From assembly GCA_000146045.2 (NCBI GenBank), contig BK006948.2, forward strand, positions 800,001 through 864,000: 64,000 nt of DNA. The letters are read 5' to 3'. Under the pieces are notes generated by a model. The model worked only from the letters and a program-made list of their open reading frames with translations, was not told the origin of the DNA and did no database searches. The DNA is from TPA_inf: Saccharomyces (Eukaryota). The translations under genes and the position numbers were made by a program. Shown piece after piece: positions 22,588-54,259 of the stretch; the stretch's first letter is position 1; each line of letters starts with the position of its first letter.

Positions 22588-22924
22588 TTAAACCTTGTAG
22601 GTCTCTAAGTGAGCATTTTCCTCCCTAACCAATGTATGGTGATGGCCAGGCGCTCTAATAACTTTATTTTTTGAATCCATGGTACAGGCAGCAATGGCGG
22701 CAAACCATTCATCATTAAAAATATCATCTAAGGTTGCTCTTTTCTTTGGATCTACTTGCAGTATACGGGACATGATAGGTCTTGAAGCATGTGGTAGTAG
22801 ACGTAATAGACGGTATGGGCCATGAATAATTTTTTTATGGTGAGGTCCTCTGTGCTGTTGACTCGATTTATTATCGGAAGCGATACTATGGGCCTTGTCT
22901 TGATTTTGATGCTGGTGATGATGG

Positions 22925-22987
<63 letters not shown>

Positions 22988-24867
22988 GGATTGTTTTGGG
23001 GAACCATATCAGGGTTAGCGTTGGCAGCAGTGTTGACGTTAGTATCAACTTTAGCGTTACAATCCGATTCATTGCTGCAGTCATTGTTAGCATTACAATC
23101 CGTTTTGTCATTGCAGTCACTGTTAGCCTTGCAATCCACTCTGCCGTTAGAGTCACCATTAGCATCGCAATCAGCGTCGGCATCGGCATCTACTTTCTTT
23201 GGGTTAGCTGAAACTACCGTGCTTTTATTCTCATTTTTGCTTATTTTAATATCGATGGTACTTTCCTTGTCATTATCTGGCGTGCTTTCTTTATCATTAT
23301 TGCTATCATCTTCTTTATTTTCTTCGGTTTCTTCTTCCACAATGTCTGGTTTGTTATCGCTTTTACCCTGTATAGATGCTGGAGTATTTGGAACTTGATT
23401 TTGAACTGTTTTCAAGTTTGATTCATGAGCTGGTTGTTGCTGATTGATGGCGGAACAGTCACTGTGATTCAAAAACCTTTGACGCTTTTCTTTTCTTTCC
23501 TTCAGTAACTCTTCGTGATGCCTGGCAGATTCAACATAGTCGTGTTCTATATCATCCGGCATACAATATAATCTAAAATTATCGTCAGAATCTCTAGGGG
23601 CTTTCCATGGAAACCTTTTAAGCACCATACAACAATATATGATCCCAATAGACCATATATCGACGCACTGAGGATCATAAGATTTGGTGGAGGTAATCAC
23701 TTCCGGCGCTAAGTAAGGGTCACTACCCACGATTCCATGAGCCATCGTTACGCCATCTTCAAAAGGATATCTGAACACAACAGCACTACCAAAATCAATT
23801 AATTTCAAAATACCCTGGGAAGTCATGACACAATTATCCAATTTCAAATCTCTATGTGCCAATCCCATAGAATGTAAATATTTAACACCTTCAGTCAATT
23901 GCTTCAAGCAACAGTTGATCTCGCCACGAGACATCTTGCCTGTCATAACAACAGCAAAAAAATCAATCGGACAGTACTCCATAACTTCATAGTATTTATT
24001 TTGTTTAGAATCAGAGAAAACGTCAACAGTTTCGATAACATTTGGGTGATGTAAAGTCGAACCAATACAAAATTCTGCGGTGCACTTCTTGGCATATTCT
24101 TTCACACTCTCATTCGGTTTCCTTGGTCTGAATTCTTTGACGGCAAAAGTAGCACCATCAGTTGGTCTCACAAGAACTTTAACGGACCCACCGGCACCGG
24201 AACCCAATAACTTACCCAATTTCCCGTATTTTTGAGCCAGAATACAATCATCGTGATATATATTAATATTATTGGACAAAGATAGGATAGAATCGGTACT
24301 TGGCGGTATAGCAGACTGGGTATGAGCATAGTGGTCTGTAAAGCCATGAGGATGCTGGGCACGATAGTGATTATTTAAATTAACTGTAGAAGTTGATTTT
24401 GAAGGTGGGGGGGAATGGGTGCTATGTTTCTTGGAACGAAGTTGAGACATAGATAGTTTTTTATTTACAGAAGGTCTGAAAAACCTTTTCAATTCTGCCA
24501 TGGAGTGGGTTTGTTTTGGAGAGGCGGGAGAAGTATAGTCATGGAGCCCATGAGAAATATTATGGTGGTGGTTTGTTTCATAGTTATTATTGTAGTTGTT
24601 TGTTGAGATACTGGTTGCATTAGAATGGCTATGGGTGTTGTTATTAAGGTTTGTTGTAGTATAATTTGTAGTGGTTGTGGTAGATTTCATGGAATCTGTA
24701 GATTTCTCGCTTCTTAGTGAGTCATTACTTTGTTTTCTACCAATGAAGTTTAAGAAAGATTTAGAACTTCTGATCAACTGTGGCGGGTTATTAGACGAAT
24801 TTTCACGGTCATGATGATGGTCATTATGATGACCATGGAATGGGTTTCTCGACAATAGATTAGGCAT
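22588..24867 (-). CDS. HRK1: Hrk1, Ser/Thr protein kinase of the NPR/HAL5 family (759 aa), with a Q20 tract
   Basis: Kinase motifs [16 protein letters not shown] and APE; low-complexity Asn/Ser/Thr-rich N-terminal half with a Q20-His tract. Confidence 0.9.
22927..22986. repeat. Perfect (TTG)20 / (CAA)20 trinucleotide microsatellite encoding the Q20 tract of HRK1
   Basis: Sixty nt of uninterrupted TTG on the plus strand; flanked by CAC (His) codons on the coding strand. Confidence 0.95.
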
Positions 24868-31058: not shown

Positions 31059-32042
31059 CTAAATACCTCTGTTAAAATAGACCTTTTCAATTGGCTTCCC
31101 ATCCTTATCCTTCTTGCCATGTAGTTCAGGTTCTAGTTTATTTAAATGGATTGCTTGTCTTTGAGGGAAGATACCGAGTGCAAATGGCAAAGCTGAGAAC
31201 ATTGTGACTGAGATCAACCCCAAATTGGCCAAAGTTTGCACACCGAGAGACTTACCTTTGAGGACACCGCGTTGTAGTCTAACCAAAATCAAAGGTGGGA
31301 TGACCATAGTTGGAGTGGCGTTAATCACTCTACTTAATGCAGTTTCACCAACTGCCATGAAGGCAGCCTTCTTGGACTTTCCGACTTCGTCACCGTTAGA
31401 GTCAAACACAGAAATACCCTTTCTAATTTCGTTGCCTCTCATTAGGAAGACGTTGACAATACCGGCACTGACCACGGCGGCAAATGGCACCAAACGGCCC
31501 AAGATCAACTTTGAATGTGGAGAAATGTTTTTCAACCTGGGAACTAGGTTATTTAGACCTAACGCAACACCACACGACGCAGTTACAGCGGCAGCGTAAT
31601 TGGTGAGCAATTGGGACGTGGACATAGGATGAGATTTGTTTGCGTTAGCGGAATTAACGGCGACGTTTAGCGATTGATTTGCCCATTGCCAAAATACAGT
31701 CCCTGCCGTACCCAAACCAGGCGTCAGCATACCTACAGTAACGACTAGGTTTGATAGCACGTTGGAAGACATACGGAAGGGCAAAAGAACTGTCTTCCCT
31801 GTGTCCGGATGCACGGTGGAGTCCAGTTGTTTCTTGGCTCGCCAGAACTCCGGAGTAGTCTCTTTTAGTTCACCGTGACGATACGCACTGATGATTTCTC
31901 TAGCATGCGCCAGGTCCTTCTCAGTAGTTAACAACATAGTGGGGTCGGAAATCTCTGCGCAATGGCGGATTCTACCCCAATACGTGGATAAGTCATAGCG
32001 GGATTCGGGCAAATCGATGGGCCCTGGGACTGATGATGCCAT
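31059..32042 (-). CDS. FSF1: Fsf1, fungal sideroflexin (mitochondrial tricarboxylate-carrier/SFXN family), 327 aa
   Basis: Sideroflexin-like multi-TM sequence; ATG start at 32040-32042; 327 aa. Confidence 0.9.
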   Translation of the reverse strand: MASSVPGPIDLPESRYDLSTYWGRIRHCAEISDPTMLLTTEKDLAHAREIISAYRHGELKETTPEFWRAKKQLDSTVHPDTGKTVLLPFRMSSNVLSNLVVTVGMLTPGLGTAGTVFWQWANQSLNVAVNSANANKSHPMSTSQLLTNYAAAVTASCGVALGLNNLVPRLKNISPHSKLILGRLVPFAAVVSAGIVNVFLMRGNEIRKGISVFDSNGDEVGKSKKAAFMAVGETALSRVINATPTMVIPPLILVRLQRGVLKGKSLGVQTLANLGLISVTMFSALPFALGIFPQRQAIHLNKLEPELHGKKDKDGKPIEKVYFNRGI

Positions 32043-32185
32043 ATTTCTCTGCCTTGTTTATTTTTTTCTTTCGATGCTGTGTGGTTTTATTATTGCTAAC
32101 TTGCAGTGGTCGACGCCTTTGAAAACTGTAAAGCTGATGCGAAGACCTAACAGTCTCTTATCCAATTACCTCAATCTGGTACGCT

Positions 32186-32195
32186 CCGGTACCGG
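32186..32195. promoter_or_regulatory. Perfect palindrome CCGGTACCGG (matches CCGG-N2-CCGG, the Leu3-type Zn2Cys6 site) about 145 bp upstream of FSF1
   Basis: TCCGGTACCGGA at 32185-32196 is a 12-bp perfect palindrome in an otherwise AT-rich promoter. Confidence 0.4.
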
Positions 32196-32643
32196 ACGCC
32201 AGTACGAAAGAAAAACTTTTCGTTCGTCTCGGGCACCATTGGTATAAAAAGCGCCGAGGCAGCGATCATTTTTCTAGTATTACTCTTCTTTCATTTTTTA
32301 GTTATCTTTGATTTTCGGTTCCGAAGAAGGCATGATACATATTAAACATGCCTTCTATTCACTGTGCCATCTTACATCCGTAGGTGATCAGAGGGGAAAA
32401 GAAGAGCTAGAGCAACTCCCACACTCATGAGCGTCCTCATACTGTTCTGGGCGCTTCTCACAGGTGCTTCTTTTAGTGTCTCCCATTGGCCCAGATCGGT
32501 AGCTGCGCGAGTGAGATATCTTTCATTCATTTATATTTATCTGTAGCAATAGCTTCCTTTACTATTTTATTCTTAGGGAGAACTTTAGCTTATTTCTTGC
32601 ACAAGAGGGTTTGACAGTTTTCTGTTACCCGGCCAGTACTTCA

Positions 32644-32682
32644 AAAATTTTTCAAAAATTTTCTGAAGTGCTCATCTCATCG
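32644..32682. promoter_or_regulatory. Ribosome-biogenesis promoter module in the YTM1 promoter: two RRPE (AAAAATTTT) plus one PAC (GCGATGAGATGAGC, reverse orientation)
   Basis: TCAAAAATTTTTCAAAAATTTTCTGAAGTGCTCATCTCATCGC, about 130-170 bp upstream of the YTM1 ATG. Confidence 0.6.
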
Positions 32683-32812
32683 CAAACCGTAGGAGCAGTG
32701 AAAGGCATATGCTCATCTGTATAATTGCAAAAAGACATATTCTATGTTCGCAGAACCAATACGTTACCTAAAGTTTTAAAGACAATACCAAGGGAAACTG
32801 CACAAATTCAAT

Positions 32813-34195
32813 ATGACAGAAGATAAATCGCAGGTTAAAATCAGGTTTTTCACGCGTGAGAAAGATGAATTACTACATGTACAAGATACTCCAATGTACG
32901 CCCCCATCTCATTAAAGAGATATGGGTTGTCCGAAATTGTCAATCACTTGTTGGGCTCGGAAAAGCCTGTTCCTTTCGATTTCTTGATTGAAGGTGAATT
33001 GTTACGTACTTCATTGCACGACTATTTGACCAAGAAAGGTTTATCGAGCGAAGCCTCGCTGAATGTAGAATATACCAGGGCAATTCTTCCACCATCCTAT
33101 TTGAATAGTTTCAGCAATGAGGACTGGGTTAGCTCATTGGATGTCGGCGACGGTTCCAAGCATATTATTAGTGGTTCTTACGATGGTATAGTTCGCACCT
33201 GGGATTTATCAGGTAATGTGCAAAAGCAGTACAGTGGTCATTCTGGCCCAATCCGTGCAGTAAAATACATTTCCAATACAAGGCTAGTTTCGGCTGGTAA
33301 CGACCGTACTTTGAGATTATGGAAAACCAAAAACGATGATTTGAAATTAACTTCACAACAACAGGCACAGGAAGACGATGATGACGAAGTAAACATAGAG
33401 GACGGTAAGACACTGGCTATCTTGGAAGGTCATAAGGCACCAGTAGTCTCTATTGATGTTTCAGACAACTCAAGAATATTATCTGCATCATACGACAATT
33501 CTATTGGGTTCTGGTCTACTATTTATAAGGAAATGACAGTTGTTGATCCATTAGAAGATATAAACAATCCAAACAATAAAATATCCACTGCTGCTAGAAA
33601 AAGGAGAAAATTGACAATGAAAGATGGTACCATTAGAAGACGTGCCCCTCTGTCTCTGTTAGAATCCCATACAGCTCCTGTTGAGCAAGTGATCTTCGAT
33701 TCTACAGATAATACCGTTGGTTATTCAGTATCACAAGATCATACCATCAAGACATGGGATTTGGTCACCGCGAGATGTATAGATACAAGAACAACATCGT
33801 ACTCGTTGCTTTCCATTGCTCAATTGTCGACTTTGAACTTGTTAGCATGTGGGTCCAGCGCCAGACACATCACATTGCATGACCCACGTGTGGGAGCGTC
33901 TTCCAAAGTTACTCAGCAACAACTAATTGGTCATAAGAACTTCGTTTCCTCTCTGGACACTTGTCCCGAGAATGAGTATATATTATGCTCGGGTTCTCAC
34001 GATGGTACCGTGAAGGTATGGGACGTCAGGTCTACTTCTCCGATGTACACCATAACAAGAGAAGACAAATCGGTCCAAAAGGGCGTCAATGACAAAGTTT
34101 TTGCTGTCAAATGGGCTGAAAAAGTGGGTATTATCAGCGCTGGTCAAGACAAAAAGATTCAAATAAATAAAGGAGACAACATTTTCAAAAACTGA
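32813..34195 (+). CDS. YTM1: Ytm1, WD40 60S-ribosome biogenesis factor (460 aa)
   Basis: N-terminal ubiquitin-like region followed by WD40 repeats; RRPE x2 and PAC motifs in its promoter. Confidence 0.9.
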   Translation: MTEDKSQVKIRFFTREKDELLHVQDTPMYAPISLKRYGLSEIVNHLLGSEKPVPFDFLIEGELLRTSLHDYLTKKGLSSEASLNVEYTRAILPPSYLNSFSNEDWVSSLDVGDGSKHIISGSYDGIVRTWDLSGNVQKQYSGHSGPIRAVKYISNTRLVSAGNDRTLRLWKTKNDDLKLTSQQQAQEDDDDEVNIEDGKTLAILEGHKAPVVSIDVSDNSRILSASYDNSIGFWSTIYKEMTVVDPLEDINNPNNKISTAARKRRKLTMKDGTIRRRAPLSLLESHTAPVEQVIFDSTDNTVGYSVSQDHTIKTWDLVTARCIDTRTTSYSLLSIAQLSTLNLLACGSSARHITLHDPRVGASSKVTQQQLIGHKNFVSSLDTCPENEYILCSGSHDGTVKVWDVRSTSPMYTITREDKSVQKGVNDKVFAVKWAEKVGIISAGQDKKIQINKGDNIFKN

Positions 34196-41957: not shown

Positions 41958-42182
41958 TTAAAATGTAGAACGAATCATGACCAACTGTATCAGGTGTTTA
42001 AAAAGGCGAGGTGAAAGAGAAAGGCTTCCCCCTCTAATATCAACAGCTGGAGATACATCTTTCTAATAATTAATCTACCATGAGCCGTACGCACTGAAGC
42101 AACGCCCATCAAACATCCGAAGCCACATTATGAGTACAAAAGAGGCTGACGTTAATAGGAACTCATGGTGTAATTTTGCTTC
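41958..42182 (-). ncRNA. SNR31: Candidate H/ACA box snoRNA (snR31-like), minus strand
   Basis: Recalled to lie in the CAF20-HEM4 interval. A minus-strand 3' end around 41961 has ACA (complement of 41964-41966) followed by 3 nt and a U-rich run; candidate H box AGAUUA mid-RNA; TATA-like TATATTTAAA (complement of 42241-42250) about 60 bp upstream of the proposed 5' end. Ends uncertain by a few nt. Confidence 0.45.
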
Positions 42183-42402: not shown

Positions 42403-42599
42403 ATCATTCAATAAACTGATCTTCCGGATTACCATGCTTAAGACATCACGCCTCCATATGTCTATATAAAGCGCAAATGGCTGGAAGTAGACCAATTTTT
42501 TTTGTTCCTAGCTTTTCATTATTGAAATCTAATCCAGTTTTAATGGTTTTTCTTAATTAAGAAAACAAATTATCATTGGTTCGCTCTAGGTGTACATAT
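42403..42599 (+). ncRNA. SNR5: Candidate H/ACA box snoRNA (snR5-like), plus strand, divergent from the snR31-like gene
   Basis: GGTATAAAAGGCG TATA box at 42331-42343, about 65 bp upstream of the proposed 5' end; ACA at 42594-42596 is exactly 3 nt from the proposed 3' end (42599); candidate H box AGACCA near 42488; no ORF of 60 aa or more. Confidence 0.5.
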
Positions 42600-54186: not shown

Positions 54187-54259
54187 TGGACGCAACCGGA
54201 ATCGAACCGATGACCTCTTCCTTGCAAGGGAAGCGCGCTACCAACTGCGCCATGTGCCC
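54187..54259 (-). tRNA. tA(UGC): tRNA-Ala (anticodon UGC), 73 nt
   Basis: Reverse complement reads GGGCACATGGCGCAGTTGGTAGCGCGCTTCCCTTGCAAGGAAGAGGTCATCGGTTCGATTCCGGTTGCGTCCA: A box TGGCGCAGTTGG, B box GGTTCGATTCC, anticodon loop CTTGCAA (TGC), 7-bp acceptor stem GGGCACA/TGCGTCC. Confidence 0.95.

Follow-up and report, generated by a model that had tools for sequence, protein, structure and literature searches.

In the window, i.e., the whole 64-kb stretch of DNA that was analysed, the sideroflexin gene FSF1 and a YTM1-like ORF are separated by an intergenic region embedding the H/ACA snoRNA gene SNR8. The product of the FSF1 ORF is 100% identical to S. cerevisiae Fsf1 and matches PF03820 over the full length of the profile (positions 1-319 of 319, E 4.3e-134). 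The features of the region are the following, where the sequence blocks described as invariant are those shared by the four Saccharomyces species introduced below:

31059-32042, minus strand: coding sequence of FSF1 (YOR271C), a sideroflexin of 327 aa (PF03820) and the presumed regulated gene
32141-32150, minus strand: conserved 10-nt block TTAGGTCTTC (FSF1 sense), invariant, the second-longest run
32165-32170, minus strand: conserved block GGTAAT (FSF1 sense), invariant
32185-32196, no strand assigned: Leu3-type palindrome TCCGGTACCGGA, read directly from the sequence, with the invariant CCGGTACCGGA at 32185-32195
32243-32250, plus strand: conserved TATAAAAA (TATA) box, oriented towards SNR8, 89 bp upstream of the snR8 5' end
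32332-32521, plus strand: SNR8, H/ACA snoRNA gene (Rfam RF01248 snR8, 190 bits, E 5e-41, full-length model)
32625-32631: TTACCCG upstream of YTM1, invariant
32644-32662: two AAAAATTTT RRPE-like repeats upstream of YTM1, invariant
32670-32683: PAC element GCTCATCTCATCGC upstream of YTM1, invariant
32813-34195, plus strand: YTM1-like ORF with an NLE domain and WD40 repeats

SNR8 is transcribed away from FSF1, and the two genes share a divergent promoter region of 289 bp. The perfect 12-nt palindrome is located in the middle of this promoter, 143 bp from the FSF1 ATG and 136 bp from the snR8 5' end; over its whole length it spans 143-154 bp upstream of the FSF1 ATG, i.e., it is placed in the 5' intergenic region at the distance of a UAS. 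These sequence and position data agree with those of a previous sequence-only reading of the same DNA, which had described a perfect Leu3-type palindrome at 32185-32196, about 145 bp upstream of the sideroflexin gene FSF1. The same reading had placed the site 620 bp from the divergent YTM1; the distance is correct (617 bp to the ATG), but SNR8, which that reading had missed, intervenes at just 136 bp and lies between the palindrome and YTM1, so that the latter is not the neighbor of the site.

The only conserved TATA box of the promoter region is found on the SNR8 side of the palindrome, 47 bp away from it and on the far side from FSF1; the four Saccharomyces species all carry the octamer GTATAAAA (32242-32249) unchanged, and both the distance and the orientation of the TATAAAAA box suggest that it belongs to SNR8. 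A CTCGAG-like element is located near the SNR8 TATA/A-tract in many species (window positions 32226-32236), in the form GCCCGAGAC in S. cerevisiae (FSF1 sense) and N. castellii, GCTCGAG in S. eubayanus, K. lactis, and Z. bailii, and TCTCGAG in T. delbrueckii and Kaz. africana; a role as a common promoter element, of the snoRNA or of FSF1, is possible. The two conserved blocks TTAGGTCTTC and GGTAAT both lie on the FSF1 side of the Leu3 site, ahead of the ATG, and TAGGTCTT is also present at -129 upstream of FSF1 in Nakaseomyces bracarensis, beside a TGACTCA. The TTACCCG, RRPE-like, and PAC elements are ribosome-biogenesis motifs of the upstream region proper to YTM1 (32625-32683). Further RNA genes of the window are the divergent H/ACA snoRNA pair snR31 and snR5 (41961-42182 on the minus strand and 42403-42599 on the plus strand, respectively) and a tRNA-Ala(TGC) (54187-54259, minus strand).

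The core of the palindrome is the decamer CCGGTACCGG (32186-32195), with everted CGG half-sites separated by a 4-bp spacer. It conforms to the core decamer by which Leu3 sites are recognized (CCGGNNCCGG, 4-bp spacer) and, moreover, it is the very decamer that Leu3 prefers (PMC2065891), which bears out the assignment of the motif to the everted CGG type of Leu3 made by the sequence-only reading. The Leu3 consensus compiled from the literature is the longer YGCCGGTACCGGYK (MacIsaac 2006 supplement); this extended form is not found at the site, whose decamer is flanked in S. cerevisiae by T/A instead of G/C. In S. eubayanus the flanks are A/A. The G/C flanks of the decamer are a preference rather than a requirement.

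The CCGGNNCCGG decamer occurs twice in the 64-kb window versus 0.08 copies expected from dinucleotide-preserving shuffles, two copies being reached in 1 of 100 shuffles. The other copy, CCGGCACCGG (24191-24200), falls within a kinase-like ORF of 759 aa (22588-24867, minus strand), where it codes for the glycine-rich GSGAGGS loop; it was considered as another Leu3 site and discarded for this reason. Since it represents a by-product of coding, the copy upstream of FSF1 is the sole intergenic CCGGNNCCGG of the window. The looser pattern CCGNNNNCGG is not enriched over the same 64 kb (4 observed versus 1.84 expected). Against chance, conservation is stronger evidence than these window counts.

The whole FSF1-YTM1 intergenic regions of S. 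cerevisiae, S. mikatae, S. kudriavzevii, and S. eubayanus were aligned. In the FSF1-SNR8 promoter, 35% of the columns are invariant; in the snR8 block (about 190 bp) the invariant columns amount to 88%. The longest invariant run of the promoter is CCGGTACCGGA (11 nt, 32185-32195), and a maximal run of at least 11 columns has a probability of 0.0014 when the columns of the FSF1-SNR8 promoter are shuffled. In each of the four species the core also starts at a similar position, at -153 to -158 from the FSF1 ATG. The T at the outer end of the 12-mer is variable, being replaced by A in S. eubayanus, which indicates that selection acts on the decamer plus one base and not on the full palindrome. On the basis of this alignment, purifying selection acts on the site in Saccharomyces.

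The picture changes when the analysis is extended beyond this genus. In L. thermotolerans, GCCGGTACCGGC is located at -166 from the FSF1 ATG, versus 0.03 copies expected per 5-kb locus, and this copy does carry the flanks of the extended consensus. Allowing up to one mismatch, no site was retrieved in the 1 kb upstream of FSF1 in T. delbrueckii, N. castellii, K. lactis, Nak. bracarensis, Z. bailii, Kaz. africana, and C. tropicalis, and E. gossypii has just a one-mismatch match, ACGGCACCGG, at -878 from the FSF1 ATG. The site is thus missing upstream of FSF1 in eight of the nine non-Saccharomyces yeasts examined, i.e., in all but L. thermotolerans, so that the link between the Leu3 site and FSF1 is lineage-restricted. 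The E. gossypii promoter also contains CCGGTAGCCCGG at about -218 from the FSF1 ATG, with the same half-sites arranged as CCG-N6-CGG, that is, with a spacer longer by two bases; it could be related to the Leu3 site through decay or a change of spacing, or it could have arisen by chance, the promoter being rich in GC. Gcn4-type motifs are present upstream of FSF1 in Nak. bracarensis (TGACTCA at -122) and K. lactis (GAGTCA at -104), and no Gcn4 site was found upstream of the gene in S. cerevisiae. The idea that Gcn4 replaces Leu3 in the amino-acid control of FSF1 where the Leu3 site is absent was considered; these motifs are short and occur at approximately the rate expected by chance, and no conclusion was drawn from them. 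The annotated Fsf1 ortholog of T. delbrueckii (372 aa) has an N-terminal extension of 45 residues (2001-2135 of the locus); as the conserved MASSV... start lies 135 nt downstream, its start codon has probably been mis-called.

Published data allow us to compare the site with the occupancy of Leu3 in vivo. Tang, Liu & Clarke 2006 (PMC1559704) compared ChIP-chip and expression data obtained with an overexpressed, constitutively active MBP-Leu3. In Additional file 1 of that paper, YOR271C and YOR272W are adjacent entries of a 200-entry column, and they are absent from both the 250-entry column and the 44-gene intersection. Methods and Results describe the lists as the 200 most strongly bound genes and the 250 most strongly induced ones. 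The header of the file is reversed with respect to Methods, in that the 250-entry column is labelled "bound" and the 200-entry column "induced"; mining the file by its header would therefore label FSF1 and YTM1 as "induced by Leu3". We rejected this literal reading for YOR271C and take the 200-entry column as the bound set, on the basis of the list sizes, of the presence in this column of BAP2, GDH1, and LEU9 (BAP2 is not induced at high Leu3 activity, according to the text of PMC1559704), and of the number of adjacent-gene pairs, which is 45 versus 23 in the 250-entry column, an excess expected if intergenic probes were assigned to both flanking genes. With the column read in this way, Leu3 occupies the region between FSF1 and YTM1 in vivo when its level is raised, binding having been scored at 8-40-fold Leu3 overexpression. 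The tentative statement of the sequence-only reading, that YOR271C appears in genome-wide lists of Leu3 targets, was therefore correct. [quoted passage not shown] The text-form supplements of MacIsaac 2006 contain motifs and no target lists for YOR271C, and no paper pairing Leu3 with YOR271C or FSF1 was retrieved from the full-text literature, the link being reached through reviews and one supplementary table.

Given the layout of the region, it might be asked which gene the site serves, if any. Its target might be SNR8, or the two divergent genes together, if it worked as a bidirectional upstream element in the promoter of the snoRNA, and indeed its distances from the FSF1 ATG and from the snR8 5' end are nearly equal (143 versus 136 bp) and it is upstream of the conserved TATA box positioned for SNR8. 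The comparison of the loci makes this improbable. snR8 is syntenic between FSF1 and YTM1 in nine other loci (S. eubayanus, S. mikatae, S. kudriavzevii, K. lactis, L. thermotolerans, E. gossypii, T. delbrueckii, Nak. bracarensis, and Z. bailii), and in five of these species, namely K. lactis, E. gossypii, T. delbrueckii, Nak. bracarensis, and Z. bailii, it is in place without the palindrome, which is therefore not needed by SNR8. The L. thermotolerans locus has the 5' end of snR8 at 734 and the palindrome at 1835, i.e., 1.1 kb separate the site from the snoRNA and 166 bp from the FSF1 ATG. The site and snR8 do not co-occur at a fixed distance across species and, since the site is close to FSF1 in L. 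thermotolerans, it tracks FSF1 rather than SNR8. A bidirectional effect in Saccharomyces keeps a small probability.

The main rival to a regulatory site is a perfect decamer made accessible by the open chromatin around a strong snoRNA promoter, to which decamer Leu3 would bind without any meaningful effect on FSF1. The presence of FSF1 in the bound list and its absence from the induced one would be accounted for, as would the finding that most bound genes are unregulated and their binding possibly fortuitous (PMC1559704), and the TATA box of SNR8 is only 47 bp from the site. Conservation counts against this possibility, because a neutral site would hardly be the longest invariant block of a promoter otherwise invariant at 35% of its columns in four species, and because L. 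thermotolerans has the site again, equally far from its FSF1; on balance, we regard it as unlikely. A further possibility is that the palindrome arose by chance, or that it is conserved for another CGG-reading factor, with no involvement of Leu3. As 64 kb were scanned for any interesting motif, a single match in one genome is weak evidence, and CGG triplets are read by many Zn2Cys6 factors; UAS_GABA, the site of Uga3, is also an everted CCG-N4-CGG, with the same half-site orientation and spacing as the FSF1 site. The everted CCG-N4-CGG with a GTAC center is nevertheless an arrangement specific to Leu3, Uga3 preferring a different center: the central four bases of the Uga3 site reportedly differ from the GTAC of the Leu3 type, which is the one present at FSF1. 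If one also considers that just 0.08 copies are expected per window, that 11 nt are exactly conserved, and that an in vivo enrichment of Leu3 at the intergenic region has been published (PMC1559704), neither chance nor another factor appears at all probable.

The palindrome is, very probably, a selected Leu3-binding site serving FSF1. That Leu3 binds to it is highly likely, and we lean towards a regulatory effect of Leu3 on FSF1; taken as a whole, it is reasonably likely that the palindrome is a genuine Leu3 site of the UAS_LEU type, through which Leu3 would regulate FSF1 according to the level of alpha-isopropylmalate (alpha-IPM). As regards the control of FSF1 by Leu3 advanced by the sequence-only reading, the Leu3 decamer, the selection acting on it, and the bound list are in its favor, and the absence of FSF1 from the 250 induced genes is against it. 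[quoted passage not shown] By analogy with its characterized targets, the Zn2Cys6 homodimer would be constitutively on the site, some 150 bp ahead of the FSF1 ATG; when alpha-IPM is low, as with plentiful leucine, Leu3 would dampen FSF1 transcription, and when alpha-IPM accumulates, as with limiting leucine, it would activate it. The expression of a transporter of the mitochondrial inner membrane would in this way be tied to the flux through the branched-chain amino-acid pathway. The sequence identity of the site, the selection acting on it, and its occupancy in vivo under raised Leu3 are established; that FSF1 responds to Leu3, in which direction, and with what part, if any, for Fsf1 in exporting alpha-IPM is inferred.

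The FSF1 site shares several properties with the classical UAS_LEU elements of LEU1, LEU2, LEU4, ILV2, ILV5, and BAT1, i.e., the CCGGNNCCGG decamer with the preferred TA center, the upstream location within about 150 bp of the ATG, the conservation in related yeasts, and the occupancy by Leu3 in ChIP-chip. It departs from the extended consensus in its T/A rather than G/C flanks and, unlike the classical elements, it is common to a divergent snoRNA gene. Moreover, whereas LEU1, LEU2, LEU4, ILV2, ILV3, ILV5, and BAT1 are in both the bound and the induced lists, FSF1 is in the bound one only (PMC1559704). Another term of comparison is OAC1 (YKL120W), which codes for the mitochondrial oxaloacetate/alpha-IPM carrier and, like FSF1, is a Leu3-bound gene for a transporter of the mitochondrial inner membrane; it represents a precedent for the control of a mitochondrial transporter gene by Leu3, and a model in which Leu3 controls the export of its own co-activator, alpha-IPM. 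The two cases differ in that OAC1 is bound and strongly regulated and the transport of alpha-IPM has been shown for its protein, whereas Fsf1 is a sideroflexin and not an SLC25 carrier, and its role in alpha-IPM transport is putative.

The link between Leu3 and FSF1 is a rediscovery of a prediction of 2006, with matching ChIP data from the same year. Kovaleva, Bazykin, Brudno & Gelfand 2006 (J Bioinform Comput Biol 4:981), as described in two reviews (PMC7911444; PMC9495560), proposed on bioinformatic grounds that YOR271C is a candidate alpha-isopropylmalate transporter, thus reaching for the same gene the same conclusion as the sequence-only reading; both reviews present the proposal as lacking experimental confirmation. 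With respect to that work, as described there, the present scan adds the SNR8 context and the patchy distribution of the site outside Saccharomyces. What is added here overall is the SNR8 context, a site that tracks FSF1 across species, its lineage-restricted distribution, and the status of FSF1 as bound but not induced. FSF1 orthologs of Zygosaccharomyces, Komagataella, and Brettanomyces now bear the name "putative alpha-isopropylmalate carrier". This widely copied name seems to derive from a regulatory inference such as this cis-element supports.

The functional data on Fsf1 favor serine transport and not alpha-IPM, which does not sustain the link of FSF1 to leucine or alpha-IPM metabolism suggested by the sequence-only reading. 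According to the account of Kory 2018 given in PMC7911444, FSF1 rescues the glycine auxotrophy and the purine-synthesis defect of human cells deficient in SFXN1/SFXN3, and the SFXN1/3 loss that Fsf1 complements is a defect in serine import (PMC7911444); in addition, the extension of lifespan by L-serine is blunted in fsf1-delta (PMC7949035). A review of 2025 still calls the substrate of Fsf1 unknown (PMC12783890), and cites Marobbio 2008 for Oac1 as the demonstrated alpha-IPM exporter; OAC1 is also a strong Leu3 target (PMC1559704). The bound-but-not-induced status of FSF1 weakens the alpha-IPM carrier name. The Leu3 site behind this name is absent in eight of the nine non-Saccharomyces species checked and, since a hyperactive Leu3 binds without detectable induction of FSF1 and the element is absent in most of the other yeasts examined, caution is needed in carrying the name over to orthologs.

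Yeast has a single sideroflexin, Fsf1. A more speculative scenario, to which we give little credence, is that Fsf1 provides a second route of metabolite exchange, conditionally induced through Leu3 and following the flux of the leucine pathway, and that snR8 is coupled to the amino-acid supply, both being a recent acquisition of Saccharomyces and of at least one Lachancea rather than an ancestral trait. If this were true, the second route would consist either of an export of alpha-IPM redundant with Oac1, or of an import of serine/one-carbon units coupled to the branched-chain amino-acid status of the cell, and the bidirectional element would couple a ribosome-modifying snoRNA, snR8, to the supply of amino acids.
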